From: Lama guanicoe | Lineage: Eukaryota | Reading direction: 5' to 3' | Length of the DNA stretch: 64,000 nt | Assembly: GCA_013239625.1 (NCBI GenBank) | Contig: MU053216.1 | Coordinates: 1,888,943 to 1,952,942 of the forward strand | Shown: positions 5,321-64,000 of the stretch, in pieces | How the letters are laid out: every line of letters begins with the position of its first letter | How positions within the stretch are numbered: position 1 is the first letter of the stretch | Notes under the pieces: generated by a model | Seen by the model: only the letters and a program-made list of their open reading frames with translations | Told to the model about the DNA's origin: nothing | The model's database searches: none | Translations under genes and position numbers: made by a program

Positions 5321-5388
5321 AAACAGTCCAGCAATGGGACTGCGAGTCCACGTTCCCTCTTACAGGGCTGTTTTAAAGTCCACACCGC

Positions 5389-8705: not shown

Positions 8706-8845
8706 TGGGGGGAGGGTGTAGCAGTGGTGGAGCGTGTGCTCAGCACGCACGGGGTCCCGGCTTCAACCCCCAGCACCTCTATTAAAATAAATACATAGAT
8801 AAAAATACCTAATTACCTCCCCCCACCAAAACCAATTTTTAAAAA
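8706..8845 (+). mobile_element. tRNA-Ala-derived SINE (Vic-1-like)
   Basis: Same head and body, plus cctaattacctcccccc tail. Confidence 0.88.
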
Positions 8846-17049: not shown

Positions 17050-17210
17050 CGCGGCGAGGTGCTCTACTCAGACCTTGCAGCAACTTACAACACAAAGGAA
17101 CATGAAAAGGAATGTGCGTCTGTACACGTGTGGCTGAAACAGGACGCTGTGCACCAGAAATGGACACACGTTGTAAACTGACTCGACTTCAATAAAAAAA
17201 GAACGGAAAA
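17050..17210 (+). mobile_element. GC-shifted L1 3' end fragment
   Basis: gctgtgcaccagaaatggacac...gtaaactgactcgacttcaataaaaaaa. Confidence 0.8.
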
Positions 17211-20250: not shown

Positions 20251-23200
20251 CGTCACGTGTTAGCAGTGTGCGACCCCAGCACTGCTGTTAGCCAGACCTG
20301 GTTCTCTTTCGGGGAGTGGAGTGGGTCTGTTTTCCTCTCACACTTTGTCTTACGGGTACAGGACACTTTGCTGCTGCGTTTCATTATGCCAAACATGTTT
20401 ATTGTGCTTGTATTACCAAATCAATGAATTAGAGGAGTTCCCCCAAGAGGATTAATGCATTTTTAATGAAACTGCATGATATACCTCATTATTCTCTCAG
20501 AATAATGGCAGCTCTGTGGAGTTTACATAGATAAGAGCTGAGAGTCTACCAATGGGCATCATTCGCTGTCACGTGGAAAAATATTTCTCAGATTCCATCA
20601 GGCTCTAAAATCACTGTTTATTTGCACGGCTTCCACCCTTCTCTGTGATTAGTCCACCTACACAAAGTTACTATTAATTTATGAGAAAACTATTATTCCC
20701 CTTAATCATTATTGTTTCTCTGTTTACCTTGACTCTGCACTTCAGAAGGGAACACTAACTATTAAAACAACCTTGGAACTTATCCAGGGGAAGTCCTTGA
20801 ACTCACGCTGTATACTGGACAGCAGACCTGGGGAGGCGTAAACCCAGGGGCAGCAGCAACGTTCCACGACTGTCACAGGTCTAATCCGCGGTTAGGCTAC
20901 TGCGCTGAATTACAGTCGCTTCCATTCAGTTAGTGGAATTATTCTAAAAAGATCCATAACCACAAAAACATACACAAAATAGAGTATATTCCTCGAGAGA
21001 GAGGATCCCGTCTGTACACCTCATGTGGAGTCTCTAAGTCCTGAAATGTCACTGGCACACCAATGACCCTTGCTAAGTGTTCACTGAATGAAAGAAGGAA
21101 CCTTAAAGACACCTGACCAGCCAGACGGCAATTAAACGGCCCGCTGATGACTTCAGCTGTGTAAAGGCCAGGACACCGGGAACCACGCTGCTTCAGCAGT
21201 CACTCATGGCCACACACAGGCCGCTGTCTTTCATCATCCAGGGACTATTACTAACCTGTACAGGGACCCACGGAGTGCACAAAAATTCTTACCTCCTCAC
21301 CGTTTGGATTGGTTTTAAAACCACATATGCTCACACATTTAAATTTTAAATTACTTCAAGTTGATAAGGAGGTAACTTACAGGAAACATCAAATGAAAAT
21401 TGTGTTGAAAACTGGATAACAAATGAGAGTATTTGTTACTGGAGAAGAGGCAGCTGGAATTAATGCTTTAGGATGAAATGGACTGATTTGAATTTCAGAA
21501 ATATAGTAAGTTAAACAGTGAAAATAAATGTTATGCTAAAAATCAGAATTTCTAGACTGAAACACTTGGAGACACACTGTCTGAGCTTGCCTCCTTGGGG
21601 CCCAGGCTAGGAGCGCCACTCTAATTCCAGAGAAAAGTATACATTTTTTTCAGGTAGCTTGCATACATTTTTAGATTAAAAACTGATTAATACGAGTAAA
21701 AGCTCTGTAGATTCACAGCCAGTGTTTTGGGGGCTTATGTTGAAAAGCTGACCACTAATTATAAAAGCCTGACTGCACTAATCAATCGCTCAGATCCACG
21801 TTAGGCGCCCATTACAGACATAAACACGGGAATATCTCTCCCTTAAGTAATGCGCTAAAATCATGCGTCTAAAACATTCTCATATGAAACGCATAAACAG
21901 TCTTATCATTAAAGTTCCTTTCAAAATAATGAATTGACTTTTGTGTGTACATTACACACATAAAAGACGTTTTTAAATTTCACTTGTTTCCTAATTTTTT
22001 AAACTTGTTTTATATGTTTACAATGGCAAATGTCAATCAAATAATTAACGAATACCAAGCAGCCTGGTGCAAAACATCTCATGTGATGGTCTCATAACAA
22101 CAACGAAAAGTCATTTTTTGTTCTTTAAGGAACTTTTAGAATTGAACACGTGAATGTGATCACGATGGTGTCTAGAACGGAGACACACTGATCTTGGAAG
22201 AAGTGCGTCTGTTGTATCCAAGTCTGTTTTCAGCTTCTCTCCCCCAATCCAGAGATGTTTCTAGACTGCAGATGACAAAAACATCCTCTTACAAGCAAGC
22301 TTCCGGAGAGCAGTCGCCTGTCACACACATGCCGTCCCTCCCTGCCCTCCAGTGAGAACTGCCTCTCTCCCTCTGGCATTTAGGAAAAAAGCAAGCTCTT
22401 AAATAGATACAACCCAGAGGAAAAACCAGAAATAGAAGAAGCCAGACACCTGCTGACAAACAGTGACAAATCCCACTGATACCCAGTGACCCCCCAGTTA
22501 GTCGAGATTTAATTAAGGGCATAATTAAGTCAGTGGAACAGAACACTAATGAGTGTTTTTTTTAAATATGGGTAATTATACGTGAAAATACCAAGTGTGG
22601 TGGAGACCTAAATATATCATTAAAACGAACTGTATAGAGTAACAAACAGCCGGCGAAGGGTGCCTCTTCTATGGCTGTTAAAAAAAAAGTGGAACATGTC
22701 TCAGGTTGAATAACACTCTGGCAAGTTTACGTTGGCTTCATGCTGGGAACGTTTGTTATTCTAATTTTGCAACAATAAGCGACTATGGGTATTGAGATCC
22801 TGTTTCCAATGCAGATTCCATTGGCTTTGAAGTCCTTCTGCGTGGAGCATTTTGTCCAACTGCAAATGAGCAATTAAGAGACTGTTTGCAAGTATTTGGC
22901 CTCCTGCGGGTCGGCTTCTGGAAGTGCCCATCTGAGCGGGAGACTCTGACAGATGCGGGACTGGCGGGCTTCACTCACTCCCATTATGTGGGCTCCTTTG
23001 ATTTGATCACAGGACGGTGGTCTGCGGACTGGGAAACACCACGCAGGAAGGGTAGATGGGGCTGACATAAAGCTGGTAGCTTTTCACATGTGAAAACGCG
23101 GTCACGAGCAACACAAGTCTAAAACCACCGTGTTACATGCTGCGCTGAGAAGACGCGGGTGTCTCGGGACCTGCCCTTCTGCCGGGATGATTTTCTCCAC

Positions 23201-25769
23201 GGTGCTTCCACCGGGGGTGGGGGGCCTGAGGTCCTCATCTACCCAAGCGACAAGTGGAAAAGCAGCCGCTCAGCTGCGAGCACGCGCCATCCAACTGTCC
23301 ACGTGATCACGACTCTGACGGTTTCCTTTAAAAACACCGGGTTCCTCTGCTGTGACCAAAAATTGACAACACTGTAAACGGACTGTGCTCCAATGAAAAA
23401 AGTGAGTCCATCTCCCACCTGCAGATACGACACACGTCTCTCCAGTCTCCCCGCGTCTGTCTGGTCCAGCCTGCGCTCTTACAATATTCCAGAGGGAAAG
23501 GACACCTTCATAAGCCCCTTATCAGCAGGGCCAATGGCCAGGCACCGCATCTTTCTAATGGGAGCCAGGCTGGATTTTGTCTGAATAAGGATGGAGGTGA
23601 GGTGCCTTACACAGCGCATGTGAAATTATTTATCATTTGTTGCACAACTGCCTCTCACTCAAAAAGTAAATTCCTATCGGTAGTTAAATATCATCAGATT
23701 GGCTGCCTGATATTAACTGCTTATAAATCCCAATGTACCTGTGGTGACAATGGCAGGTTTCCCCGTGTGAAGAATTTGCTCTTGACAAAGGCATTCTGTG
23801 CACAAATGTCCACGGATAGAATTCTGACACTCCATACAGTGGTGTGAGTATTCTCCAAACACAAGGGCCGTGGAACACAAAAGAACTGGGAAGAAAAGTC
23901 ACCTTTCGTTTAAACAGTGAGTTTATAGAGCTTACTGCTCCATCATGCTTACCATAAAAATAAGCATTCTCTCTCTGCCCAGGCTAGTGTAACAGTTCCC
24001 AGGAATTATAGCCAAGATTTCTGATGTACACACACCCCAAACCTGAGCTAATAATTAATTTCAGTTGCTTATAAACCAAGGCACATTAGAATTCCAGACA
24101 TCTGAGTGAGTGGTAAGCCTGCAGACCCCGGGAGGCAGAGACGAGTGGCTCCTGGGGCTTCAGAATCAGTTGTACAACTTTTGGAGGCCGCACGGGTTAA
24201 AGCACGATCCTGGGCCCGTTAATCTCGGGACCAGCTCAGTTCACCTGTAACAGCTGAGCCATGGGACGCATTTTTAGGTGCCCATGCCCGGCGGTTCCTG
24301 GTTAGGCAAATTGATCATTAGTCTCTGTGTGAAGCATCTTTCCCCAACGATCTGTTCTCTTCCTTCCCCAAACCACAGCAAACCTTCTGAACACAGTAAT
24401 AAAACTGACTGAGCCATTATTACAGGCTTCGGGGAACGCCAAACAGAAAGTCCAAAGCGGCTGGGTGGGATCTCGTTTCACCCCAGCCAACGCCCGAGAC
24501 CCCGATGGCCGGGCGTCATCCTGAGCCCGCCTTGGCCGCCTCTCACACAAGGACGCGGTGCCTTCCCCACATCCCTCCACCCTCTCTCTCTTTTTCTTCT
24601 TTTCTTTTTTTTTTGGGCCAGGCCGCCCTTACCAAGTTCTGGATGAATGAACAGAAGTGCCTTTCCTCCCCCATTTGCCTCCCGGTTCAAAAGGAACCAG
24701 TAAAACAGCAGCCCCAGAAATCCCACGCAGCCTGGGGGCCGCCCTGCACACGTCTCCGTTTCTAAGGCGTGAGAGCGGCTGGAGAGCTCAGCAAAATTTT
24801 TATGGACGGGAGCAGGCCCAAGGAAAACTCGCCCGCCATAACCAATTGTGGACAGAGGATCATCCATCAGCAGACAAATGCAGGAACTCCAGAATGTCTC
24901 TCCTCAAATGAAATAATATATCTTTGAAAGCCAATGCCCGTTTTAGGCCCGAGGCCCATATATCAAGCCCGCGCGGCTGGTGGAATCGCTCCAGGGCCAT
25001 TAACCTTCCACCTGTTCCCCCTTGTCCTTCAGGATGAGACCCTGCCCTTGATTTTCCTCCCTTCCCCTGTTCATCTCCCGACAGAGTGTAAATGTAAAGC
25101 ATGGGCCTGGGAAATAACTCAAAGGCAATGGACCAGGGGCCTGGTGACAAATCTCTGCCACTGGCACTGTGACTTATGCAGGCAGTTTGTCACACACGAG
25201 CCAGGTGACCTCTGTGACATAACAGAGAAAAATATCGCCAGAGGTCTGAGATGGGAGTCGGCGCTCTGAGCAGCTCTGCTCCACAGAGTGAGCGGGGGAG
25301 CTGGTACCCGAGATGCTCCTCCGACCAACGACGGCGGTGCCGGGGAAACCGGAGCGGCAGGCGGGACCCCCTCACTGAAGCCATCTCTGTCCAGGGAACT
25401 GGGGGCTTCCCTGTAAGATCAGGGTGAGAATTTTCGTGTTCCTGATAATGCCTTGTACTCGCTGCGAGAGCCGGAGACAGGCAACGTACATCCACCCAAT
25501 TGGACCTTAATGCAGAGATGTTAACAGAATTCGAAGAATGTAAAGGTGAGCCCATGAGGAATGTGTCCGTCTGAGGACTTAAAAGCTATAGTGATGAAGG
25601 AAACAAAGTTTTCCTAAAGCTTATAAATTTGCTAGATGAAAGAAGCGGGCGAGCACAGCTGTTGAGACATAACACTGCTCATTAACACGGATCACACGTT
25701 CAGTTCTGTACGGCTCACGTGCGAAGGCACTAAAGGAGCAAATGAGATCACGAGCAAGAAAGTCCAAAC

Positions 25770-37165: not shown

Positions 37166-37837
37166 TCATCAGGTTGAAGGTGGGACCTTGGAACCAGTAA
37201 TGTTAAAAGGTGGTATGTGATGACTTCAGGCACCCTGGCCTGTAGAGCCCCCTCCCTGACAGCAATGTGGGTATAACTAGAAGGCTGCTGTGGCCCCATG
37301 AAACCAACGACTATGAAATGAACAGCAACAGATCCATGTACGGTTGAAAAGGAAAAACTTTCTGGTCAGAAAGTAGGTGATACGGAAACAATTTTAAAAT
37401 GGCACCTTTGTTTAAATGAAACATGAAACAAGGCCCAAGACCTCGAATACACCTGCGTCCCCGGTAACTGGCACTTCCCGAGAAGGAGAAAGCCATCCGC
37501 AGGCCCCCTTCACGGCGCCGCTGACAGAGCTCCCGCGGGCGCGAGAAGGAAACGTGGCAGTGCGCGCCAGCTAAGTGCTGGGAGGCCAGAGACGATGCCA
37601 CCAAAGTGAAATCGCGAAATGAGACAGCAGGCGCAAGTCCAACAGCCACTGTGCTGTGTTTCCAGCCCCCCGGGTCACCTCGCCCCTTCTCAGCTTCCTC
37701 TGGTGGCTTCTCTTTGCTTCGTATACGATCCACATGTGAGAGGAGCCTTAGGTGAGCAATCCCGCTCAGCAGCCCAGCCTTCCCCCCTGCGGGCTCCCTC
37801 CGCGCTCCTTCCTCGCCACGGGAGTTAGGCACAGATC

Positions 37838-40804: not shown

Positions 40805-40905
40805 GGGGGAGGGTGTGGCTCAGTGGCAGAGTGCGTGCTTAGCAAGCGCGAGGTCCTGGGTTCCATCCCCAGCACCTCCATTAAATAAATAAATCTTTAA
40901 AAAAA
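40805..40905 (+). mobile_element. tRNA-Ala-derived SINE (Vic-1-like, short tail)
   Basis: A and B boxes; degenerate TSD aaaaatgagggcaacgtt / aaaaatggagggaaatgtt. Confidence 0.9.
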
Positions 40906-47872: not shown

Positions 47873-48436
47873 TGCCAGCCCCAGTGTTCACAGCAGCACT
47901 ATTTATAACAGCCAAGACATGGAAACAGCCTAAGCGTCCACTGACAGACGACTGGATAGAGAGGTCATGGTGTATTTATACAATGGAATACTACTCAGCT
48001 ATAAAAAATGATAAAATAATGCCATTTGCAGCAACACAGATGGCTCTGGAGAATGTCATTCCAAGTGAAGTAAGCCAGAAGGAGAAAGAAAAACACCATA
48101 TGATATCACTCATATGTGGAATCTAAAAACAAAAGACAAATGAACTTATATGTAAAACAGAAACAGACTCACAGACATAGAATACAGACTTGTGGCTGCC
48201 GGAGGGATGGAAGGTCTAAACTAGGAGTTCAAGATTTGCAGATACTGACTGGTATACATAGAATAGAAAAACAAGTTTATACTGTAGAGCACAGGGAACT
48301 ATATTTAATATCTTGTAATAGCTCAGAGTGAAAAAGAATTTGAAAACGAATATATCTATATTCATGTATGACTGAAGAATTGTGCTGCACACCAGAAATT
48401 GACACAACTGACTATACCTCAATTAAAAAAAAAAAG
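47873..48436 (+). mobile_element. 5'-truncated L1 (ORF2 end and 3' UTR)
   Basis: ORF 47872-48126 reads [24 protein letters not shown]...TMEYYSAIK. Confidence 0.93.
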
Positions 48437-50123
48437 AGTACAGGTGCCTGTTTTTTTCCTGAATGTAAGAGTATTGCAGAAAGCTTCCACACACTTATCC
48501 TGAAACATTAACAACAATGTTAAAATAGCACTGACCTGCCCAGCATATTACACATGCCAGGCTCCCGGATGAGATGCTTTGCCCCCATAGTTTCCTTTAT
48601 TCCTCAAAAAATGTCCTCAATAGAAGTATTTATCCCCCATATGCCCCCAGCTCCCCACAAACACCCCACGAAGCTGAGAAAACTGAGGCTCAGAGACTGC
48701 CCGCCTGCGCAGTTATTAAACAGCAAAGATCGGATCCGAATCAGCCCCTCTGACTCTGAGGTCGTGCTTTCCCACCCTTGGGTCCCCTGTCGGTTGGGTC
48801 TAAAATGATCACCTTCATCTTCAAATCCCGCACCTGTTCTCTCCAGGACAAAGCTGTGAGCCTAACAGCAGCAGCACAGCTTTGTCGGCTTTGTTTTCAG
48901 TGACCGGCGCCCGACTGTCCCGGAGGCCGCCCACACTCAGGCCTGGCCTGACGGCTAAGGCAGTAGACTCTGCTGGCCTCCCATCATCTCCACGGTGGGC
49001 CGTCCTTCCACGCAGGACAAAGGCCCAGAGAGCAGGGCTGCACCGCCTGCAGGCCTCACAGCGGGCTGGTGGGGGCCTAGTGACTGATCAGGATCCATTC
49101 AGGTAACTTCTGCTTCCGTGACAAATCACGGTGCAGAGTGAAGTCGGCCATGGAAAGCACTGGTTCCATTTGCACCTGGCTTCCAGTCCCCAGCCAGTCC
49201 ACACACACTGCTTTAAACAGAGACCTTTACATCAGAAGTCTGCTGTGCACTGTCCTCTGGGGTTCTTACATCTCCCCCAACAGTAAAAGGAAGAAGCTGA
49301 TTTGGGAACAGGTAAGACTTCGACATCAAATCCAGGATTCATTTTTGTTTTTTAAAATCGAGAACGAAACCACTGACCACCGAGTGCGGCCTGCTGGTGA
49401 TTCTCAGATCCCGAACTTCTCTATAACTTCCCCATATTAATTCAGTCTTAAGTTTCAGGAAATAAAATAATTACGGAGTTAAACACAGATCTTGTACAAA
49501 CAAGTACTGTGTTTACAATGTACCAATCCATTAAAATCAGCGACAGGCATAGATTATGAGCACTAAAACGCAGCCAGGCAGACCAGCTCTCACCGGCGGC
49601 CCCCCACCCCATCCGATGACGGTAAACATCCTATTGGAATCTGCTCCCAAAACAAAGGCTTTCCAGAACTAACTAACTAACGTCAAGATAAACAGGTAGT
49701 AAATACCGACTGCATGCTACTAACCACTGGTATCATTTGCATTCTTTAGCGTCTAAACACAAGGAAAGGTTGGCATTCTTTTCTCCTAAACTGGCACCAC
49801 TCTAATCTAGCTCTTAATTTGGTATTTTTTTAAAGTTTACTAGGTGCTGTTTCACTCTGGCTTAAATTTTTTCGATAAGCCACCAAGGTGAGGGGAGTCA
49901 GTAAAGACATTCGGCTATTCAGAAAAAAACAGCCTACTCAGTTTCCTCCATTTTACACTTAACGCCACACCCCCACATGGAGAACTCTGTAGATAAAAGC
50001 CCCAGAAAGTGAGGCTGCCGCGGTCCTGAGGTCAAGGGCGCAAGACATCACACGAAGGAAAGGAAGGAAAGTGGGTTTTCAGGTCCACGGCCGAACCCCG
50101 CGGCGCAGGCGCGGCGCCCTCCA

Positions 50124-50770
50124 CTTGAGCTCCCGGAAGAAGACGCTGCTGCGGGCCCACTCCACGATGGTGAAGAGCGTCTGGTCGGCCATCTTGCACA
50201 TGAGCCCGAACGTGCTGAGCCGCTCGTGCCTGCCGCGGCCCGCCTGCTCCTGCTGCAGGTAGGCTGCGATCTTGGCCTGGACCTGGGGCTCCTCGGGCTC
50301 GCACTTGAGCAGCTCCAGGATGAGGTGCGGGACGCTGGCCGGGGAGCTGGTCTGGTAGCCGTCCACGTAGGAGTAGCCCAGCACGGACTCGGGCGAGCTG
50401 CCGTAGGGGTCGGGGTACTCGGACTTGATGGCCCGGCTGGGGAAGTGGCCGTACGGCGGGTAGCCCTGCAGGCTGCCGTGCGGCGGCATGGTCATGCTGA
50501 TGGGCGACGTGACGAAGGGGCTTCTGTCGAAGTCTGTGGGAGGCAAGGCAGCGTGGCTCAGAGGCAGGCCTTTGGAGGCCGAGTGGATGTTCTGGATCGC
50601 AGACGAGATGCCCAGCTCCGAGGGCATAGCTTGGATCACCTGGGACATGGCTTCCAGCTTGAGTCCGTTGGCTCGGATGAGGGCCTTTTTCTGCTGCTTC
50701 AGGGCTCTGTCCCTCTTGTACATGGGCCCAAACTTATTCCTGCCGCCGCGCATTCGGTCGGCCCTGACCG
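50124..50770 (-). CDS. NR5A2: NR5A2 exon (exon 5 equivalent): T/A box, Ftz-F1 box, hinge (IKSE SUMO motif, SP sites) and LBD start to ...[12 protein letters not shown]
   Basis: ORF 50079-50825; acceptor ccgacag| at 50771-50772; 647 nt keeps the frame to the next exon; the 3' boundary is set by protein similarity because the donor is non-canonical in this sequence. Confidence 0.95.
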
Positions 50771-50844
50771 CTGTCGGGGCAGAAACAGGAATTGAGGGGG
50801 TAAGTAAGAGGTTGATCATTAGCATTCTCCAGATCTTTATTCTG

Positions 50845-51088
50845 TTTAATTTTTTTAAACTTCTTTTATTTGGGTGGAAGTTTGCTTTTTTTTGTTTTAG
50901 GGGAAGGTAATTAGGTTCATTTATTATTAATTAGGTAATTAGTTGTATTTATTTATTTTAAATTTTATTTATTTATTTGAGGGGAGGTCATTAGGTCTGT
51001 TTATTTTTAAATGGAGATACGGGGACTGAACCCAGGACCTCGTGCATGCGAAGCACACCCTCTACCACTGAGCTATACACCCTCCCCA
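50845..51088 (-). mobile_element. tRNA-Ala-derived SINE with a reiterated 3' motif, just upstream of the exon 5 acceptor
   Basis: Body at 51012-51087; ggtaattagg-like motif repeated at ~50907, ~50934 and ~50986. Confidence 0.85.
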
Positions 51089-53134
51089 TCCCGAGATATT
51101 TAGAAAGGCTGAAAATTGATCAGAAGTGGTTGGTGGGTGGTTGTTTTCATTACAATAACCCACAAAGATTCCCCAAAAAAGCCATGTCCTCTTTATTTAT
51201 GAATTCTTTCCTCCAAGTGTGTTTGTCATTAAAAAAATATTTTGGATACAAAGGGACATTAACCCTTTGGTGAACTGACGAGATTTCTTAACTATTGATA
51301 CACACAGGGGGGGTTTTGTACTGATAAAGTATCAAGTATTATGCCAGCTGTGTTGTGATTCTCTGTATGGAAACTCACACTGCTAAAAGGGAGAACAGAG
51401 CAGAGTCAAATAACCTGTTTCTGGGTTCTGTTGTGCCTGTGAACATCTCCCTCACTCACTGCAGAAGGGCTGGGCACACGCTCTTAGAAAATCACCCTCA
51501 ACTGGACTCTGTGAGCACACATCTGAGACCTACCAGTTACTGTTTTTAATTCTAGTGGAACTGGACAGAATTTAAAGCAGATTCATTTCAGAAGCTGTCA
51601 AAACGGCCCACCATCTCAACACGGTCTGGCATGTGGGGCCATGTCTCGTAATTTAGTTAGCATAGTGGCCAATGGCAATGAGACAGGAGCCGGAGACCCC
51701 TGAGAGCCTGTGATATGTTGAAATTACTGGAGGTGAAGTTTTTGAACTTTTTATCTTAGGATTAGTATCACATTAAAAATTTATTGTGAAGGGTATCCAG
51801 AATACTGCACAAGACAATAGAGTTTTTCATCTGGATGATAATTTATTGAATGAGCAATTGTTTCATATCCCTGTCAAGGAGGTCTAAGTATGCACCACCA
51901 CAAGTGACTTATAGTTAAGAAAGTGTACTGTTGGAAAAAAAAAAGACTCAAATGACATCATATGCTTATCTTCTGAGTCTCCTACTAGAGTAAGCATGTA
52001 CCACACTGCTTTGCAGTTTAGAAAATAATACAGGGATTGGTAATAAATTAATAAGCATCAATTAATTCCTTTCTCAGTCTTGTCTTAAAAGCAACACTGA
52101 CTTAACAGTCTTCTTGATAACCAAAGTGGCTACTTCTCTGGGAAGCAGTCTATCAGCAATGCAGCAGGTTTATTTGAAACTTTTTGAGTGTTCCTTTCAA
52201 GGCTGAGTGCCACACAAACAGAAAAGCCCCAGACAACTAGCTTGTGCCTCATTCATCGAATAGCATGCACTGTGCATCTGGTGCACGTTGGTGATACGTA
52301 CCCCTTCCTACTACTTTCTTTGCAGTATATATTTAATCTTTGGAAAGTCAGTAGGTCAGAGGCTGAAAAACAGCAACACACCATGATAGTCCACGAACGA
52401 CAAATTATTTACAGTGGTCACCTGTTAACTTTCTGTACGTCGTAAATGCAGGGTCTACTTTTTCAACATAAAGTTTAATGTGACTTTTGGGGAACCATTC
52501 TTGTCAAACCAACACTACCGATTTAATAGTTCATTATTTTTCACGTTTCCGGCTTCTCACATTTTTTTTATTTTGCAGACTCAGTCATCATCTTAAAGAA
52601 ATGTGCTTTTCCACACTATCAAAATTGATACTCTACATGAGAAACTCCTTTTTTATAATTAAAAGCTTTAATTCTTGCTCTGGAGTCATGAATCTAGTAG
52701 TTACAATTATGACAGGCGCACTCTTGTAAAAGGATTAAAAACACACTGTTACCAGGGCGTCCTGCTCTGGAGACTTAAAGGATTTTTAAAAATATTTTCA
52801 CAAATTATTTGTATTTGTTCTCAGTTGAATCACTTTGGTCCTGCTTTCATTTAACCTGTCCTTTCATCTAACCTAAGAAATATATCTGCCCCTCAAACCA
52901 AAACAGAGGTGGGGGAGGGGAAAGCCTGGTATTAACAATTTTTTCCTAGTAGATTTCACCAGTGTTTAAATGAAACTCAGGCTATTCTGCTGACAAAACA
53001 TAAAATGATCTTACATTCCTGTCAATAGTGTTAAAAGACTAGAAAAATACTGTTACCATGTTATAAGTACAGTGTTGTTTTAAATCCTGTGTCCTTGGAG
53101 ACTTAACAGGCAGTAGTCTTTAGAAGAAACTTAC

Positions 53135-53276
53135 CTTCTAGCTTCATTCCAACACTTAGACATTTTTGAAATCGACAGTAAGGACAACGTTTTCTCTGTG
53201 TTTTGTCAATTTGGCAGTTCTGGTTTTCTATACACGTGTACCTTTTATTGTTTTGGACGGTTCGCTTAAAAAAGCC
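53135..53276 (-). CDS. NR5A2: NR5A2 exon (exon 4 equivalent): [47 protein letters not shown], second zinc finger
   Basis: Not in the ORF track, translated by hand; acceptor cttatag| at 53277-53278; donor GAAG|GTAAGT at 53134; 142 nt. Confidence 0.97.
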
Positions 53277-54765
53277 CTATAAGAGAAAAACAGCGAGACA
53301 TGTTACAAACCTAGCACCCGTCTCTTCTATTGTTTCATTTTAAGGAAATCACCAGTAAATCTTTTCATTGCGCCATTTGAGACCTTCTGTGGTTCTGTGG
53401 TGTGTTTCACTTCTAACAAGATCAGCCCTCTCGAGCAGCGCCAGGCCGTGCTGGAGGTTTTCCTGGCATCAGAGTTCTGTCTCTCAAGAATCACATCAAA
53501 TCTTGGGGAGATTTGGCTACACAGCATTTCATATCAACATTCAGAGAAAAACACTTTCTATGTTGACCAGTAATTTTTTTGGAAAAAAAAAAGTTTTCCT
53601 ATTAACCTTCCTATTCCAGGTGAAGCACTCTTAGAGAGCTGCATTGTTTTTAAGCAGCCCGATACGAGTTCAGTGGCAAACTACTGTAAAATACCAGTGG
53701 AAAAATGGAATAGCAAAAACCTCAGATTTTTTAAAATAAATGTCAACATTAGATAGTGAAAAGCAAAAGGATTTAAAGAATAAAACGGGAAAATATTTGT
53801 AATTCCACTGGAATACATTCAAGTTGGGGAACTGTGTAAAAAAAAAAAGGTGCAACTAATTGGGAAAGAAAAAATAATGTATAGCAGAGAGTTGAAATTT
53901 AGCAGAGTGTATGCCTTCCTTATATTTCATGCAAAAGAATTAATCAAATATAAAATCTGTAGCTTTATAACATAGTAACAAGTTGGATGGTGTTTTCTTT
54001 ACATTTGTCCTACTGGCCACAAAGTGAAACCATCTTACTTTGTTATAGAGAAAAAGGGGATTTTCCTGGCAGTGGTTTAAGTAATTGTACTGAGTTTTCT
54101 ACTTTTAAAAATGTTAAACAATAGGGAGTATCAAGTTTACCAGGAATATACAAAAAAGGCCTGAGATAAATCCTTAATGTATAGTTGACATTGTTAGTGG
54201 CAATATAGTACATGTGACACATTACAATTTCTTGCATTTAAACAGGTCATGTAATATACTTATGAAACCTATTTTTATAAACTTAAGGTCTGGTTTCTTA
54301 TTCTTTGTGATATAAATTTCAAAACATCTTAAAATTATTTTTGGAATAAATCAGGATGAAATCCCGCAGTTGAGAATTTAGACTTTTATGTCCGTGGATA
54401 AAAAATGTTTAGACGTGCAGCACAGAAGACTCTGAAGTTAAAATGTATTTGGGAAATACTTTGTCATCCTCCCCCTTGAGAACAACGATGCTTTAAATAT
54501 ATATAAGTCAAGCAAAATCAATATTTTGGACTGTTAGCAATAGAAGTCTTTCTACAGCTACATCACTTTACCACAATAAACTATTTTAAAGCCATGAGAC
54601 TGGCAAAGTTTTCTAAACAGCATAAATTTCTTTGCCTTGGGAATTAAATCAGACACATATTTCTAAGAATCATCTCCCTGAGACTAACTCTCTCCCTCTC
54701 TCATTTTTAATTGAGTCCAAAAAAGACAGCCTACATTTAGCTGTAAGAAGTAACCCAACAGTTTA

Positions 54766-54981
<216 letters not shown>

Positions 54982-55769
54982 TTAATCCTGCAATCAGAAG
55001 TATTGTGGTCATTGGGGGGCAAACATCACCAGGTAAAATATAAAATAAAAATGTTTGACCCAAGTGTACGGAAGAGAGCTATTCTTACACAGTGAAAGTA
55101 AAACATCTTTGGGCATCAATGAACATGCACTTTCTATTATTTTAATTTTAAAATAATTCCAGTTTCTATTGTTAAAAATCTTTTAAGCTGACCCATCTAA
55201 CACAAGCCTCCTAACTCTATAGAGCAACAAATCAGAATAGAAACATGAATTGCATAAAGAACCCAACTTAGAATTCCCTTTAAAGCTCCTCCATGCTCAA
55301 GTTCCAAAACATCACCTTTGCCTAAGGGAGAGAAAGGAACACAGGCGTTCTCCTCCCACTCTTGAGGTGAGCTGGCTCCAGCTCTAAGGATGCCCTGGGG
55401 ATAGCAACACAGATTTGCAAACACTTGATGGAGGAATGGAAGCCCCAAAACCTGCTTCTCTGCGGCCCCCTGCAACCCCAGCCTGCAGCTCCCAACGTTC
55501 AGATTAGATTAATCGAAACATTCAGTTCCGTATTGATAGGGCTCCTGAGTACTTTCATCTCCACACTTTTGAAAATCTGTAAAAATAAAAAGGAAAAGGG
55601 GAGGATGCCCGGCCGGAAAACAAACAAACAAAAACAAAAGGAAAAGAAAAAAAAAGATACACATGAGGGTTTGGTTTCCTCGCAAAGTATTGAAGTTCCT
55701 TAATGAACTTCACATGTTTCTGATCATCATTGCAAAATATAAACACCTTGAGTTCGCCCTGTTCGAGTT

Positions 55770-57950
55770 AAACAGAAATCAGGCCGCGGCTGCGCGCGGC
55801 TCCCTGCAGGGATCGGGTAACCGCCTTCCTCCGGACACAGCCCCTCGAAGGCGTCTTCGCAGCTCAAGTTCGGATGAACTGCCCAGGAGGAGCCGTGGCC
55901 AGGAGACCCCAGATAATACCTGGTCTGGTGCCTCCCAGAGACTCGGTCCACGCGGGTCAGGGCTCGGAGCGCGCGCGGCGGGGTCGGACGGCACAGATCC
56001 GCGCAGCCCGGCCGCCGCCCGAACCCTCCGGGCACCTCCGTGAAACTCCGGGGCGCAGTCGCCTCTCGCCCCTTGCTCAACTTTCGGCTACACACAGGCG
56101 CACAAACGCCAAGTCAAGTTTGTTTTATTTTAATCAGTGGCGTTTGCGGGGGGCGGGGCGGGGGGATGGGGGAAGCCCAGGGCCGGGCAGAAGTTTCCTC
56201 TGATTTGTTTACCGAAAAGGAAAGGGAGAAAGAGCCCCCACTCCATCCCCAAAGTACCCGGCCACTCTGTCACCACATTGGCTGCCTTGCCGACGATTTC
56301 CTTGCTAAAGGTTTTCTTTACGGATTATGGGGGCCTCTGGACACGGCCTTCGGGGTGGGGGTCACTTGCAGCGCTCCTCGGCTGAGGGCCCAGCCCTGGC
56401 CCGCAGAGTGGGGCCAGCTCTCCCGGAGACACGGAGCCCTGGGCTGGGGCAGAAATCGGAGTGAGTGAGCCAGAGTTGTGGGATTCGAGGGTCGGGGGGT
56501 GGAGGTGGAGAGCTCCTGGGAAAAGATGTTCCAGCAGAGGCAGGCCCCTGGGCTCCGTGAAATAGAAATAAAGAGATGCCTGCCCGAGTCCCAGCCCTGA
56601 GGGGTCCGAGATGGGGTTCGGGGAACCTGGGGGCTTGGGAGAGGCTGAGGGTTCCAGAAGTTTGTAACCCCATCCCTCCTAAAGCTGTGACTGTTGTCTT
56701 GAGGCACATTTTAGGGACAGGAAAAAAGTGTGCTTGACTAAGTGTTCTTTCCTACCTCCCCCTTTCCCCAACGAAGTCAGCTCTAACTCCGCACCCGAGG
56801 GGTCCACAGGGGCGACCGTTCACAGGGAAGCCGTGCGTGCCTCGGGGATCCAACACTGAAGAGACCGAGGCTGGGGACCCTCTTGGAAAATTCAAAGACA
56901 GACGCCGACACCGACGCCACTGTGCGAGACTGGGGCGTCCTGCTGTCTCCCAGGGGCTATAACCCAAGTCAGCGTTTGGGGAACCGAATCCGTAGGGGAT
57001 TGAGACAGTAGAGGAGACCATGCGGCCTTGGAAAGCTAAGGCCGCAGCAGCACGCGGAGAAGTTCCCCCGACTGTCCTGGAACCCAGAAGCTTGGGAGTG
57101 GGGTCCCCGTCCCCAGGGGCTCCTCTCGAGCCACAAGCTGCGTGGCCTGGAGGAAGCAGCGCCTGGGCGCTTCCCACGCCGCTTCCCACCCTCGCCTGAG
57201 CAAGCGGCCGGCGGCTTCTCCGAGCCCTGGGCACCAGTGAAAGCCACCGTTCTGCTTTGGGGCGGTAGGTGGTGTCAACAATACTCCTCTCGGATTTTAC
57301 GAAAAAAATACTGCACTGGCATTTCCCTCCCACCTTCCCCCAGACCCTTACTCTGGCCTCTCCCACCTCCTGCTCCAGCTTCTCCCGCACGTTTTTTCCC
57401 CGAGTCGCTCAGAAACGCGCGCGCTGTAAGGAGAAACTTTCCTTTGGAACCAAGGATCTCGCCGGCCTCAAGGGAGCCCAAAGGAGAGGCTTTCTCGGCA
57501 CTTGTCCAAAGAGGGTCCCGTTGCAGCTCCGCGTCCCCTAGGCTCCCTTTCGCGCAGTCCCAGGTGAGAGCGGAAAAGCCTCTTTGGGTCAACCGGGTTC
57601 CCCCGGAAGCCAACCCACGAGTTAGACTCGGGCCTCGGCCCCAGAGGACTTGCACGGCCCTCCCTAGAGGCTTGGAGAGACTCCGGGTCCCAAGAGGAGT
57701 CCCACCCGCAGGACGCACGCCTTCCCGCCGCCCCCTCTGCCCTGTGCAGCCGGGCGACCTCAGGCCCCGGCCCAGCGCCGCGGGCGCACCGCCTCTCCCG
57801 CACTGCCGCCGCGTGCACCAGACCTGAACTCTGCTCTCCACGCCTCCCCGGCCCTTTCAAGTTCGCTCAAGGGGATGGCAGGAAGCGTTCCGGGATCAGA
57901 GGCCCGCCTGCCCGCACATCCTGCGCGCTGGAAGGGGTGAGGAGGGAAGA
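55770..57950. promoter_or_regulatory. CpG-rich region(s) in the intron between the exon 2 and exon 3 equivalents; possible alternative promoter
   Basis: Dense CpG at 55780-56170 and 56800-57950, contrasting with the AT-rich sequence below 55750. Confidence 0.55.
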
Positions 57951-58772
57951 GCGCCGGTGACTTTTCCTAGCATTGTTCCCACCCCGGCCCAGAGCAACTG
58001 CGATAAACTTCTGAAAGGCTTAAGAGGCCTAGATCTAGAGTCTCTTATTTTGTTATGCGGGCGAAAATCTAGCCTGAGGGATTTGCTTTTGTTGTTGTTC
58101 CCGTTAGCAATCGAGAGCTGGGAAAAACAAATCGGACTTCAGATCCCCAGCTCTCAGACAGGAGAGGAATGGAGCAAAACGGCGCCCCCGCCCTGCACTC
58201 ACCGCGCAGGGCCCAGCCGCAGGATGGGCTGGGGGTAACTCTGGTTCTCTCCAGTCCTTCCTGAGGGTATCAAGTGGTGCCAACTGGAGCCGGTTCCCAG
58301 TGCGCGCCTGGGCTTTGGGATGCCCACCAGTTCTAACACGGCTTAGCCAGCTTTCCCCGAGGTAGAGGGTCCCTCCTCCACTCAAGAGCACTGGTTCCAG
58401 CTCCCACCGGTTCCAACGATGGGGAACCTGCTCGGGTTTCCAGGGAGACAGTCCATTTCTCCGAATGCTCTTACTATTATAAAGCATCTCTAGCCTGAAA
58501 CTACCCCGCTCTGGTATCTAAAAAGCTCAAAGTTTCTCTTAATTAGAAGCGGCCAATTAGGCATTGCTTGGAAAATCTCCACCCAGCATTGTTCAAGAGC
58601 CATAAACTTTTATGCCTATCTCTGGGGAGGGGGGCTGCCGCCCGCGCGCGCACTGCCTCGCAGTCCCGCAGCGGCAAGCGTCCAGCCCCGCGCGGAACGG
58701 GCGGCTGCAGCCCGCAGGGTAAGCCCGGGGCGGGAGAGCCGCGGGACGCGAGCGCCGCGAGCGCCTCCTTAC

Positions 58773-58854
58773 CTTGCATGTTTTCCGGCATCTGCCCCTG
58801 TTCCCCATGCGACCGAGCCAGTCCCAGGGCTTCCGTCTCCACTTTGGGCAGCAT
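58773..58854 (-). CDS. NR5A2: NR5A2 coding segment from the internal ATG (MLPKVETEALGLARSHGEQGQMPENMQ); similarity to human exon 2 extends upstream to 58910 (GAGLPDRHGPPTPARGRLV)
   Basis: ATG at 58854-58852; donor CAAG|GTAAGG at 58772; phase 1 matches the next exon (G|TG = Val). Confidence 0.9.
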
Positions 58855-59214
58855 GACAAGGCGGCCGCGGGCCGGGGTAGGGGGTCCGTGTCGGTCCGGA
58901 AGCCCAGCACCCGGACACGGGCGGCACAGATTCAACTCCGGAGGGAAGAAGGAGGGGGCGGCCGGCTGGCTGCTCCCTCGCCCGCTCTCTGGAGCGCGCC
59001 TCCGCCGCCTCCGGGGCTGCGCTCAAGACCCCGAGTCCCGTCCAGTCTCGCAGCGCCCGAGCCGCGGCGAGGAGGAGGAGGAAGCGGGCTGAGAGCGAAG
59101 ACCGCGTCCGGGCGCCAAGGTCGGGCTCGGCGAGGCCGCAGCTGCCCGGGGCGCGGATGCGCGGACGGCCGGGCTCCCGGCGCGCAGAGGAGGCGGCGGT
59201 CGAGCTGCTGTCCT

Positions 59215-59235
59215 GCCGCCGCCGCCGCCGCCGCC
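59215..59235. repeat. (GCC)7 trinucleotide repeat, (GGC)7 on the gene strand
   Basis: Read directly from the sequence. Confidence 0.95.
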
Positions 59236-61549
59236 GCGGCGGTGCCGGTGCCGCTGCTCCCGGACGGCTCGGCGCGGGCGACCCCCGCCCTCCCTCCGCC
59301 GCGCTCCGCTCGGAAGCGGCAGGGTCTCAGTCTCGCGCGCTCTCTGGCCTCACTCTCCTCTCCGCCCCTTCCCCGTCTCCGCTTCCCTCCGCTCGCTGCA
59401 AGCGCTGAGTTAAGAAGTTCCAGCCTCCCTCTGCTGCTTCGTCTGCCGGCGCCTGACGGAGAGCAGTCCTCTCCAGCTCCGAGGGCGCCCGGGGAGGAAG
59501 GGGGAGGAAGAGGAGGAGAAGGGAGGTAAGTAGGGCCGGGGTAAGGGGAAGGCTGGGAAGAGGGGTGATGACAGTGAATGGGGACGCGGGTTCCGGGCTT
59601 GGGTCGGACACCAGACGCCAGCCAATGAGGACGAGGCGCAGGCTCCGGTCCCCTCGCCTGCCCCAACCTCTTCACCCCGCCTCGCCCCCTCCCACCCCTC
59701 TCTGGCCCGGGGCGGGGGATGCGAGCGCGGCGGGGCTTACAGCGGGCGAGAGGCGACCTCTGTCTGAACGCGGCGGCCAAGGAGGGGAAGCTGGTGCGGA
59801 GACTGCGGCTCGCGCAGGGGAAGCCAGCGGGACGGGGGTGGGAGTGGGGATGGGCGCGCCCCCGGTGTGCGTCGGTGAGGGGCAGCACGAAGAGTTAAAC
59901 ACACATTAAAACAACCTAGAAAAGAGGAGCTAACCTGCTCTCAAGGGTGTCTCCACCTCACTCCTCTCGGCACTCAGCCCCCGCGACCCCGGGAGCGGCC
60001 GAGCTCGAAGCGCGGCTCACCTGCTCCCCCGGGGGGTACGGGGGCAGCCGTGTGGCCGCAAGTTCCCTCACTTGTTGGGAATTGGAACAGCTAACCCCGT
60101 TTCCCCACCCTTCCCCAGTGCCTGGGCTCACTTATATGCACCATCCCCTTCCTCGAGCCCAAGATTATCTTGGCGGCGGACTTCCTAAGTTTGCGTGAAC
60201 TGCGTTTTCATTTAGAATGCGGAGATGCGTCTGGGCTTTCCTTTTTTCATTCTGGTCTCTTGGGTGGGACCAGCCACATGAGGCCCAGAGGGCCGGCACT
60301 TTAAAAAGTTTTAAAGAACCATCTGTTATGCAAGCTTTTCAGCCACCAGCGCAGCCCCACCTTCTAAGTTTTCAGATCTCATCCCAGCAAGATGAAAACA
60401 TCTCCCCAGCCTCCCGACTGCACGCGAAATGCCTTATATTCAGTGTCTGCTGTGCGGCCTGGCGATTATCAGAGTCCACCCACAAGGGGCTGAATTTGAA
60501 TCTCAAAAGCTCTGAATTTATTCTATTTGAATGGCGTAGAGATCACACATTCAAACTGCCGGGTCCAGTATTTGATGAACTGAAAAATACTCCGATCATT
60601 GTCATGCCTAACCTATGGTTTTATCCGGAAGGAGTTCCTCCTCTACCCGTGCCTGGCCACACTGCTGCCTCTCTAAACTGGTTGTTACTTTGCTCTTCAG
60701 TATCTAGTATTCAGAATCCAAGTTCAAATTTAAACTTTAAAAATCTGTTTTAGTAGCATCTGCAGGTTTCATGAAAACATCTCAACTTGGTGGGTTGGCT
60801 GCCCATTAGTTTGTGAAGAGGAGGGGGCTGAGTTTGCCCAGATTAGTGGCCCTTAAGATGCTCAGATGTTGGTGACAGTATCAAGCAACATTCATTTATT
60901 CTCAGTGTTCCTAGTTTTCAGTATCTTCGTGAATTAAGTTCAGAAAGGGAGTAAGTCTCGGAGCTCAAATCAGTGCTCACAGGGCTTGACTTGTGGGTTC
61001 AGATGAACTTTGGGAATAAGTTGATTACAAAGCCTTCATGTAAGAACCACCCCCTCCCACGGTAATCAAGGAGCCTATGGGCGCCTTCCCAGCCCCAGGC
61101 AGACAGCTCAGGGGCCCGGTGCTGCCCTCGGTTGGGGAGAGAAGGCCCTCTGGCTGGTAGAGCAGGAGGAAGAGGTTAAGGAGAGTCAGAAGTAGACACA
61201 GGGACTGCCAGGACCCCCTAATTGCAGTGTGGCACACATTTTACCGGCTCTCGAGGCTGAGCCTGACTTGGCTGGTGGCAAACTTCGTGATCACGTTCAT
61301 AACCCGGCCTCAACCCCAGAAGGGACCTGTTTAAGCCACACTGGTGTCTTCATTCTAGGCCAGTCTGCCTTCCCATCAGACCCCCAAAGACCTGGAGGGA
61401 TGGTGATAAAGGACTAGCTGGCATCCATGTGGCTTCCTCACAAAAGACAGCGGCAACGGGGGAGAAAGGGGGTTGGGGTCAATGTTTTAAAAACCCGCCC
61501 TTTTTAAAAGAGCCCACAGTTGACTCAGAGGAAAGGTCCGAAGCTTTCT

Positions 61550-63030
61550 GCCTGCTTTGAAGCGCCAGTGCAGGCAGGCGGCCCTGCTTAGTAAGATGCG
61601 AGCCCTGTTCCAGGCGCCGAGATTGCGGAGGTCTCACGCCGAGAGAAAGCTTCCTCTGCTTAGAAATGGAGCCCTCGGTGCTGCAGGCCTCCAGTTCCAG
61701 GAACGGAAGGGCTCCCGAGGGCCACAGCCATCCGGATCCCCTCGGGGTATCTCGAAACCCCGCCTCGTCCACCGAAATCTCCCACAGGAGAGACCCGAGG
61801 GTCCAGTCCACTTTCCCCGGGCGCTCCGCGTGGGGTTTAGGGGAGCAGCGGAGTCCGCAACCCTGGGGCAGAGGCCGAGGAAGGGGCGGCGGTACCTGGC
61901 TTCGGACGCGCGCTCGTTACCGCCCTCGGCCAAGCGCACCCTTTCCGCACTGGAGCCCTGTGACCCGGGGTGGGCTGGGCTCCCAAGAACACCCTCGGGG
62001 AAGGGTGGCGGCGGCGGAGGTGCCCGAGCCCGCCGCGGGGCCGGGTCGGTCGCCTGGGGATGGTTGTAGGTGGCAGAGGCCGCAGCACGAGGTAGGGGGG
62101 CCAAGCGGACCCCAGGAGGGGAAGCAGATGAGATGGGGGTGGGGGAGCAGGGTCTGTGTGGCTGAAACGTCGATGCTGGCGGTGGTCTGCACTCCCAGAA
62201 AGATACACCCACCGCCTTGGAATGATAAAGCCCCCGCAGGCGGGCCGACGCCTCCCATCCTCGGCGGGGCCGTCTCACCCACCGCCTCTTAGGGGAGGCA
62301 CACTGAAGAATCCACCCCAGCTGCGGGAAGTGTAACAGGTGGGGGCCGGAGACGGGAACCCGGGGGGCCCGGAGAGGCAGCTCCGGCTTCGGCTGCCGTG
62401 CGCCTCCTCAGTTTCCTCCCTGTTCTCCTGCCAAGCCCTGGCAAACTTCGCTCCCTTTCCCCGCCACGTCCCCCACGCCCCCACCTTCTTTCCTACGAGG
62501 CTGGTCTCCAGGCTCGTCCTTCCCGGCTCTGACTTTGTCTTAAAGCGTTGATTGACGGTTGCAATTACAAAGGATGATGGCTTGGGGAGGCTCCCGCAGC
62601 CTTGATGAGCCCAAGAAGACAGTTCTGGCATATTTTATCCGGGCTCAGCGTCACGGGCCGTGCGCCCCATCCACCCGCGGGCAGGGGCTGAGGAGATCTG
62701 GGCCTCCCCGCCCGCGAGGAGGTCACTGCCTTGCTCTCCCGCCTCCGCCTTCCCGCGCCTCCGCGCCGCGCTCCCGAGCGCGCGCCTGGAACAGCCTGCC
62801 CTTGACCTGACCTGGGGGGAGGGGTGTCGGTCGGCCCCGCGCACTTCCCGCGTGCAGTCTGCAAAGGCACAAAGTGTCAAGACTTTGAGGACAGGTTCGA
62901 GTTTCCTGGGCTCAGCAAACACAGGTCCCCGGAAGCACAGCGTGGAAGACCCTCGCCTCCCGCGCGCCCGGGTGGGAAGCCTCGCACCACCCAGCCAGCC
63001 TCGCACGACGCTTGCCCGTCCACATCCTTG
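61550..63030. promoter_or_regulatory. Upstream CpG island
   Basis: High GC and CpG density; the overlapping ORFs are low-complexity Pro/Arg/Gly/Ala strings. Confidence 0.6.
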
Positions 63031-64000
63031 CAAACAATTTCGAAGGCCTCCTCCATGACTACTTGGTGCTTTCGAGAGACCAGAACACATTTCTCGTAGC
63101 ACGTGTGTACTTTTCGGCCCCAGAGGAAGCTTAGACACTTTTATCCCCTCCAGAAAGTCTCCACCACCAGGCCGAGAGAGCCCGAGGGCAAAGAGAAGCT
63201 GGTTTACTGGTCTCCTGAAACTTGGACTCTGCCTAATTTTTCGCCCCCCCCCGAAAAGCCCACCGTAAGCCATTTTTGTATTTCTCTGAAAATTAAGTTT
63301 AGTAAGAACAGAGTTTCGCTCCTGAGCTCGGGGGGGGGGTGGGCTCTCCGCCCCTGCCTCTAGGCGAATATTTCACTGCAGACATAAATTACCAAAGAGC
63401 ATCAAATTGGCCGAACCTTTCAAAAAATAAACTTGAATAGGTGAGAAGTCGTGTCATGTTAAAAAAAAATCCCTTCGCCAATTACTACTTCAGACCTCCT
63501 CAGCAACAGTGTCGAGGGCGGTAGGGAGAACTGCCGCCAGTTTAGACACTGCGCCCTGGACGAGGTGGCCCGGGGACGGCGAGGGAACCACATTCACGCC
63601 GGAAGTATCTTAGTTTACCACGCCCCGTCTTCACCCACCAGAAGATGCAAGGTGATGCAGTTATCTGGGTAATCCAGACTCCTCCCCGCCTCCCCCAAAA
63701 CAAACTCCCATCCTAGCCCTGAAGGAAAGTTTGGCCTCAATGATTGGAATCTGCAGCTCTCGCTAATAAGGCTTCGCTGTGGAACTTCTGGACTTCATTT
63801 TCTTTGGGGCAAATTGCCCCAGCCCAGGGGTCCAGGCACGTCCCACCTTGGGAGGGCCGGTGCCCTTTGAAGTGAACAGGGAGATCCGGTCTTAGAAAGG
63901 AGCTGGCGGGGAAATAATCTTGGGTAGGTGGTCCAATCTAATCTATCTCTTCCTCTCTGTAATTGAAATGGAGATGGAAGTCAGCTCCAACTCAGAACTG

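Follow-up and report, generated by a model that had tools for sequence, protein, structure and literature searches.

GC3 saturation of exon 5 of guanaco NR5A2, a probable product of GC-biased gene conversion

We analysed a 64,000-nucleotide stretch of the guanaco (Lama guanicoe) genome (assembly GCA_013239625.1, contig MU053216.1, forward-strand positions 1,888,943 to 1,952,942; hereafter the window, with positions counted from its first letter) that carries part of the gene for the nuclear receptor NR5A2 (LRH-1) on its minus strand. Within exon 5 of this gene a block of 133 codons ends almost without exception in G or C, and this block is the subject of the present analysis. Exons 2 to 6 were placed in the window using tblastn with the pig NR5A2 protein (P0038). 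Exon 2 lies at 58773-58911 and exon 3, which encodes the first zinc finger, at 54814-54932, with the boundaries of both read from the sequence. Exon 4 (second zinc finger; Pfam zf-C4, E = 1.3e-18) lies at 53135-53276 and served as the comparison exon with a low proportion of codons ending in G or C (GC3). Exon 5 was divided into a moderately GC-enriched 5' part of 83 codons containing the Ftz-F1 box and hinge (50523-50770, acceptor cag/CGGTC) and the GC3-saturated 3' block of 133 codons containing the end of the hinge and helices 1-3 of the ligand-binding domain (LBD) at 50124-50522. It is followed by a GC-rich start of intron 5 of about 120 bp that includes an anomalous donor (50000-50123). 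Exon 6, which encodes LBD helices 4-5, was identified by tblastn and Pfam at 742-862 with the phase-0 acceptor cag/GTGGAT. Exons 7 and 8 lie on the same contig outside the window (G000:C371:1884537-1884692, locus L093, and G000:C371:1850706-1850972, locus L088, respectively).

The order of domains found, a C4 zinc-finger DNA-binding domain followed by the Ftz-F1 box, hinge and nuclear-receptor LBD, is the order that an NR5A2 orthologue requires. The end of exon 5 matched positions 7-40 of the Pfam Hormone_recep profile (16.4 bits, under the Pfam cut-off of 23.5 bits) and exon 6 matched positions 42-74, making the two matches directly consecutive. The best 120 protein matches of exon 5 were all NR5A2 with identities of 77-92%, the placental NR5A2 proteins had 91-92% identity, and the protein searches returned no match above 92% identity for the whole exon or above 85% for the block. 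The block aligned over its full length to residues 49-181 of the human LRH-1 PDB chain 3tx7_B (E = 1.9e-78). Every human LRH-1 peptide that the original prediction had quoted was present in this alignment, and the window peptides also read as it had given them. NR5A2 chains in the PDB matched with E = 1e-78 to 1e-35 as compared to 1e-15 for SF-1 chains, and NR5A1 was found as a separate locus on another contig with 49% identity. For the variable peptide of exon 2 the nearest protein was that of pig, with one difference. By sequence comparison the gene is the NR5A2 orthologue, nearer to NR5A2 than to its paralogue NR5A1 (SF-1).

GC3 was counted for each exon. The block carried 132 codons ending in G or C out of 133, from AGC at 50522 through AAG at 50124 on the minus strand, and the sole codon ending otherwise was GCA at 50267. 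Codon endings were 79 C and 53 G, and exclusion of ATG and TGG (5 codons) left 127 of 128 codons ending in G or C. GC3 was 31/46 in exon 2, 23/40 in exon 3, 17/47 in exon 4, 27/40 in exon 6, 32/50 in exon 7 and 70/88 in exon 8, so that the exons other than exon 4 stood at 57-80% and the six pooled at 200/311. The difference between the block and this pool was highly significant (binomial p = 2e-24, Fisher p = 3e-19). The first 83 codons of exon 5, at 66/83, also differed significantly from the block (Fisher p = 4e-7). These counts bore out the original prediction that all but one codon, a GCA, of the last ~133 of this exon end in G or C and that exon 4 has about 17 of 47, the latter being exact, with the correction that the first half of exon 5 is GC-enriched as well.

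The enrichment was not limited to coding sequence. GC content across the block was 0.684 with a CpG observed/expected ratio of 0.81, and the first 124 bp of intron 5 (50000-50123) had a GC content of 0.65 (0.653 unrounded) and a ratio of 0.91. Measured in steps of 50 bp, GC content was 0.62-0.74 across the block, stayed at 0.56-0.74 over the first ~120 bp of intron 5 and fell to about 0.40-0.44 below 50000. The bias therefore reaches flanking non-coding DNA at the intron 5 start, as judged from composition and not from substitution counts. On the other side, GC content dropped abruptly to 0.22-0.32 upstream of the exon 5 acceptor (50800-50999). Intron 4 as a whole had a GC content of 0.375 and a CpG ratio of 0.27, and intron 5 past the flank had a GC content of 0.44. 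The flanking introns had been described as AT-rich apart from ~35 bp next to the donor; this held for intron 4, while the GC-rich flank turned out to be about 120 bp long and intron 5 beyond it to be at 0.44. The predicted intragenic CpG-rich patch was also recovered, as the 700 bp at 49951-50650 (GC content 0.647, CpG ratio 0.78) score as a CpG island by the thresholds of a length of >=200-500 bp, a GC content of >=0.50-0.55 and a CpG observed/expected ratio of >=0.60-0.65.

The AT-rich 5' border of the tract is the tail of a lineage-specific short interspersed element (SINE). This simple, tRNA-Ala-derived SINE lies on the minus strand at 50830-51082, with its head at 51082-51012 (Rfam tRNA 38.7 bits, ARAGORN tRNA-Ala) and a long A/T-rich tail, and the tail or microsatellite fills about 200 bp upstream of the exon 5 acceptor. 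The insert is not GC-enriched, which means either that the tract stops short of it or that the SINE arrived after the main episode of enrichment. Rfam searches over 48000-53500 found no structured RNA in the block, the sole match being the tRNA head of the SINE.

To obtain a direction of change at the DNA level the block was compared with a sauropsid NR5A2 exon 5 present with its introns on a metagenome contig (locus L001, exon at 3001-3648). The sequence is presumably host or environmental animal DNA inside the metagenome assembly. No other close exon 5 orthologue was found at the DNA level, as the metagenome scan otherwise returned a fish-like transcript (L002) and distant relatives, and the genome and viral contig scans returned none. 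The exon 5 protein of L001 matches bird and turtle NR5A2 exactly and human P0012 at 98% identity, and the GC3 of the L001 exon is 108/216 overall and 69/133 (52%) across the block codons. Between L001 and the guanaco block we counted 86 changes from weak (A or T) to strong (G or C) bases (W>S), 1 from strong to weak (S>W), 14 S>S and 1 W>W. Third positions contributed 64 W>S and 1 S>W, and synonymous changes were 61 W>S and 0 S>W. L001 has a weak base at 64 third positions of the block, and the guanaco has a strong base at every one of these; in the first 83 codons of the exon the same holds for 29 of 44 (p = 3e-7). Being pairwise and unpolarised and spanning the amniote tree, the comparison gives the direction of change and not the branch.

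Amino acid replacements were scored against the majority residue of 81 mammalian NR5A2 proteins, taken from the 120 listed after 39 non-mammals were excluded by name. Of the 216 residues of exon 5 the guanaco departed from the majority at 20, with 16 inside the block and the other 4 in the first 83 codons. The nucleotide changes that these replacements need at first and second codon positions were 19 W>S, 0 S>W, 2 S>S and 2 W>W, and the amino acid GC score went up in 16 replacements and down in none, as expected from the prediction that most replacements moved toward GC-richer codons. Exons 3, 4 and 6 had no difference from the mammalian majority, which includes the zinc-finger exons that had been described as unchanged, and the IKSE (SUMO-type) and SP motifs of exon 5 were intact, again as predicted. 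Exons 7 and 8 together had two differences in 132 codons, I>V and M>L, both W>S. Replacement density was 16/133 in the block and 6/342 in all other scored codons (p = 1e-5). None of the 20 changed sites is invariant among the 81 other mammalian proteins, and 18 of the 20 residues seen in the window recur in one or more of these proteins. Because the changed sites are variable in mammals and the zinc-finger exons and exon 6 are unchanged, the pattern is one of fixation at weakly constrained sites. The GC3 of exon 8 is also high, and together with the fact that the only two changes of exons 7-8 are W>S this suggests a weaker gene-wide GC-ward drift besides the exon 5 peak.

The presence of the exon in independent data was assessed using sequencing runs. 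Of the 31-mers sampled from 49900-50900, 0.95-0.96 were present in each of fourteen DNA runs, which come from eight studies and carry four organism labels, and 0.57-0.62 in six runs listed as RNA (one of these a guess). By calculation, 31-mers wholly inside the exon make up 0.635 of the same stretch. As the DNA runs contain nearly all of the sampled 31-mers and the share present in the RNA runs is near that of the exon, exon 5 as assembled is real DNA and is transcribed as an exon. The 2.05-Gb assembly contains one genomic copy of exon 5, and no NR5A2 retrocopy or processed pseudogene was found in it. Ectopic conversion from the GC-rich paralogue NR5A1 was considered as a source of the block and was rejected, as the block is 85-88% identical to NR5A2 proteins and ~46-49% identical to the guanaco's own NR5A1 exon.

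The splice donor of exon 5 does not fit the rest of the gene. Exon 6 starts in phase 0, so exon 5 must end at the full AAG codon at 50124. The bases after this AAG in the assembly are TGGAGG, and a frame-preserving GT donor is absent (50115-50130, minus strand). Splicing at the GT one base earlier would shift the frame and bring in a premature stop. A single in-frame GT is available, 27 nt downstream, and its use would add nine residues between LBD helices 3 and 4, and the Pfam profile shows no insertion at this joint (exon 5 ends at position 40 and exon 6 starts at position 42). All other junctions that were read are canonical, comprising the donors of exons 2, 3, 4, 6 and 7 and the acceptors of exons 3-6, and the L001 donor is canonical as well (AAG/gtaggt). 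The simplest reading is that this is probably a one-base assembly error in which AAGGTG was read as AAGTG. The uniform share of 0.95-0.96, never 1.00, in all DNA runs would fit such a one-base discrepancy. If the anomaly were real it would amount to conversion damage reaching a splice signal of an essential gene.

Annotated proteins of other animals also run past this donor. The Muntiacus model P0009 continues through it into sequence homologous to intron 5 of the window (GVRPW), and some mis-annotated muntjac, sheep and dolphin proteins continue into intron 5 with pieces that match the window intron. Models that pass the exon 5 donor after RELK or are mis-spliced there were P0009 (Muntiacus), P0047 (Tursiops), P0070 (Smutsia), P0033 (Galemys), P0051 (Chelonia), P0076 (Phodopus) and P0120 (Coregonus).

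GC-biased gene conversion (gBGC) provides the best explanation for the composition of the 3' two-thirds of exon 5 and the adjoining ~120 bp of intron 5, and we give this reading a probability of roughly 0.7. Under this model a strong, long-lasting or repeated gBGC episode would have acted on this tract from a meiotic recombination hotspot in or beside a stretch of ~0.5-0.8 kb. Repair of heteroduplex mismatches in favour of G/C alleles would have caused W>S mutations to be over-transmitted and fixed regardless of their effect, driving silent third positions to saturation. At tolerant sites of the hinge and LBD surface, neutral or mildly deleterious replacements (I/M>V/L/A, S/N/T>G, K>R and Q/T>P) would have been carried along, and CpG content would have risen as a by-product until the stretch scored as a CpG island. 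The hotspot itself, the branch and time of the episode and any self-reinforcement by recombination directed to the CpG island are inferred. The model fits better than adaptation because a near-total W>S asymmetry is present at silent, replacement and adjacent intronic positions, the localisation is sharp, the changes are conservative and fall at variable sites, and a CpG patch is present. The observation is real and far beyond chance, and is a striking new case of a well-known phenomenon.

Several points weigh against a simple gBGC burst in the guanaco lineage. The synonymous changes rest on the sauropsid comparison across the whole amniote tree and are thus not placed on any branch, so that gBGC is best supported while the branch is not established. 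A GC3 of 99% is above the equilibrium of ~94% of murine episodes, and by rough estimate saturation needs either a very strong, long-lived bias or an ancestor already rich in GC. At codon 83/84 the boundary is more abrupt than the smooth decay of a hotspot would suggest. Replacement density in the block did not significantly exceed that of the first 83 codons (16/133 and 4/83, p = 0.09), and rodents also cluster their changes in the block without GC bias, so that part of the clustering reflects low constraint. E52, R184 (K>R in HERLS, seen in almost nothing outside cetartiodactyls) and V210 (I>V in RSSVFF) are common to every other cetartiodactyl sampled (pig, ruminants and dolphin), and a few more residues are shared with ruminants, muntjac or dolphin, among them V136 (ruminants) and G178 and G180 (muntjac). 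Some of the shift therefore predates the guanaco lineage. Finally, GC-ward replacement recurs in parallel in several orders, and a short, "punctual" episode of the PRDM9 type would not predict this.

To compare lineages, every mammalian protein was scored in the same way for exon 5 differences from the majority and for GC-ward and GC-losing replacements. The guanaco window had 20 differences, 16 GC-ward and 0 GC-losing. Pipistrellus kuhlii had 43 differences (40 GC-ward, 1 GC-losing), Phyllostomus 28 (25 and 0), three Myotis proteins 21-24 (16-21 and 0), Rousettus 16 (11 and 1) and Muntiacus 12 (9 and 1). Hamsters, Peromyscus and Acomys had GC-ward replacements about equal to GC-losing ones. 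Among the bat NR5A2 proteins (P0111, P0060, P0069, P0084, P0085 and P0072) GC-ward replacement was even stronger than in the window, and many residues were the same. At the 20 changed sites of the window an identical residue was present at 16 in Pipistrellus and at 11 in Phyllostomus, and this overlap was above chance even when only the 102 mammal-variable sites were considered (p = 2e-5 and p = 1e-5, respectively). The window does not have the bat-shared P51, A94 and exon 6 changes, nor the exon 4 N>S of Myotis and Pipistrellus. As it lacks these other changes that the bats share, the sharing is best read as parallel change at a few tolerated W>S sites. For the same reason, and because the window carries the cetartiodactyl R184 and tRNA-Ala simple SINEs, an origin of the window within the Myotis, Pipistrellus and Phyllostomus group was rejected. 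The original prediction of a lineage burst produced by local gBGC and not adaptation therefore held in part. The GC-ward changes, W>S asymmetry, localisation and CpG patch stood, and uniqueness did not, since bats and Muntiacus show the same and three of the listed changes (E52, R184 and V210) are shared with other cetartiodactyls.

These shared residues are the basis of a first alternative, in which the enrichment is old, exon 5 having been GC3-rich already in the cetartiodactyl or laurasiatherian ancestor, perhaps as a gBGC target of long standing or one hit repeatedly, with a modest top-up here. The process would still be gBGC but without a lineage burst. The dominance of GC-ward replacements in exon 5 of Pipistrellus, Phyllostomus, Myotis, Rousettus and Muntiacus agrees with this, as does the GC3 of 57-80% already present in the other exons, with exon 4 excepted. 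Set against it, 13 of the 20 window residues are absent from all five of the other sampled cetartiodactyl taxa, the pig, sheep, buffalo and dolphin proteins depart from the placental majority at only 9-10 exon 5 sites, and the sauropsid block has a GC3 of only 52%. We consider this alternative rather unlikely.

A local shift in mutation or methylation would act through a germline-unmethylated CpG island, such as an alternative promoter or enhancer, at which CpG decay stops and equilibrium GC content goes up. The 49951-50650 island agrees with this, and high GC content does go with a high CpG ratio here. However, the inferred changes are mostly A>G or A>C in codon positions 1 and 2 and, at third positions, W>S regardless of CpG context, and loss of CpG decay alone does not produce such changes. 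The RNA runs moreover contain only about the share of the stretch that belongs to the exon. This makes a mutational or methylation origin improbable. Selection, whether it remodelled the hinge and LBD surface of LRH-1 adaptively or favoured a GC-rich mRNA (expression, splicing or structure), would account for the position of the changes in the regulatory hinge and N-terminal LBD, and the identical replacements in bats could in principle be convergent adaptation. Yet every directional change is W>S, including the 61 synonymous changes of the block, and GC enrichment crosses the coding boundary into intron 5, which disfavours selection on codons or protein. The replacements are also conservative and at mammal-variable sites with the IKSE and SP motifs untouched, and gBGC patterns mimic positive selection in cases described in the parts of PMC2631073 that we draw on. 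We regard selection as very improbable. We give hardly any weight to a misassembled block or a decaying gene copy that no longer splices correctly, for which the AAG followed by TGGAGG without a GT for the in-frame join and the DNA-run share below 1.00, which would fit one base differing in the 1-kb stretch, could be cited. The block is present in 14 DNA runs that come from 8 studies and also in RNA runs, is single copy without a retrocopy, and belongs to a gene whose frame is open throughout, whose exons 3, 4 and 6 equal the mammalian majority and in which the 132 codons of exons 7 and 8 show just 2 changes.

Within the gBGC reading we tentatively raise a broader possibility, which we think is doubtful as a whole. 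Exon 5 may be a recurrent or very long-lived gBGC target across Laurasiatheria, in the guanaco lineage, muntjac and at least three bat families, with the same few tolerated sites driven to the same GC-rich residues, that is, convergent protein evolution without adaptation. In the guanaco the tract would be saturated and would span the exon 5 donor, which may truly have lost its canonical GT. The parallel bat and muntjac replacements suggest that gBGC can yield convergent amino acid change at predictable sites, and the recurrent parallel pattern across orders is the most interesting aspect of these data. NR5A2 is an essential and very slowly evolving receptor, and a lineage with 20 replacements in exon 5 would be flagged by standard tests as "accelerated" or "positively selected". 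In guanaco exon 5 the signal is better read as recombination-driven fixation bias, making it a warning example for scans for positive selection.

Exon-scale gBGC has been described before in primates and rodents, and the comparisons made here rest on parts of the two sources cited. Berglund et al. 2009 (PMC2631073) describe W>S clusters limited to single exons and their flanks, patterns that mimic positive selection, and Riffis et al. 2025 (PMC12290510) describe thousands of exon-specific episodes with an equilibrium GC3 of ~94% in murine genomes. Guanaco exon 5 resembles these published episodes in that W>S changes affect one exon and its flanks, are both synonymous and nonsynonymous and move GC3 toward ~94% or more, and in that a conserved protein gains GC-ward replacements that are probably mildly deleterious. 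It is unlike them, as far as the parts consulted describe, in that GC3 is saturated (99%) and the same exon is GC-ward in several other orders. The 3' exons of mouse Fxy (Mid1) moved to the pseudoautosomal region, and all 28 of their replacement substitutions are W>S according to passages of both sources (PMC2631073, PMC12290510). As in that case, part of a conserved gene has gained GC massively with the remainder ordinary, and first- and second-position changes in the guanaco were 19 W>S of 23 with 0 S>W. Unlike Fxy, which by those passages moved to a region of obligatory crossover, the NR5A2 tract is below 1 kb and exon 4 at a distance of 2.4 kb is unaffected. The accelerated exon of human KIF26B, as presented in part of PMC2631073, is likewise a single exon with a W>S run in an otherwise slowly evolving gene. 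Almost all of its changes are nonsynonymous with a ratio of nonsynonymous to synonymous rates (dN/dS) > 1, in contrast to the NR5A2 block in which changes are mostly synonymous (61 synonymous W>S changes and 16 replaced residues). Relative to NR5A2/LRH-1 elsewhere, represented by the human structures 3tx7, 1yuc, 4dos and others, guanaco exon 5 departs from the placental majority at 20 of 216 residues, whereas the sauropsid exon remains 98% identical to human P0012. In the literature library searched, no paper joins NR5A2 with biased gene conversion or gBGC.

Other features of the window were recorded alongside. The strand opposite exon 5 carries an open frame of 260 residues (50013-50795, plus strand), and further long frames are present on both strands. 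Such long antisense frames are an expected by-product of few A/T-rich stop codons and do not constitute gene evidence. The 5' end of the gene, exon 2 included, lies in a large CpG-island complex at 55701-63150. Intron 5 contains further short CpG-rich patches at 2051-9500, 16551-17150, 23051-23350 and 37401-37750 (GC content 0.57-0.61, CpG ratio 0.64-0.86), which may be young SINEs or additional sites of GC conversion. Alignment identified four copies of the simple tRNA-Ala SINE in the window, at 3583-3655 (minus), 5206-5278 (plus), 40809-40880 (plus) and 51012-51082 (minus), each with a head of ~75-85 nt and an A-rich tail. Camel vic-1 is listed among the simple SINEs, built like the rodent ID element, in the part of SINEBase (PMC3531059) that we consulted, and the window copies fit a vic-1-type simple SINE of camels. 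Together with the residues shared with cetartiodactyls and the pig-like exon 2 peptide, these copies agree with a cetartiodactyl, probably camelid, source of the sequence. Elsewhere in the assembly, locus L082 (G000:C12519:14446141-14449644) is a nuclear copy of mitochondrial DNA with ND5, ND6 and cytochrome b. It is the best of the cytochrome b copies in the assembly, all of which are nuclear, and its top matches are a mixture of cetartiodactyls, skunks, rodents and shrews. The reading frame of its cytochrome b breaks off after 216 residues, and identity to the listed mammals does not exceed 90%, so the insertion is an old one.

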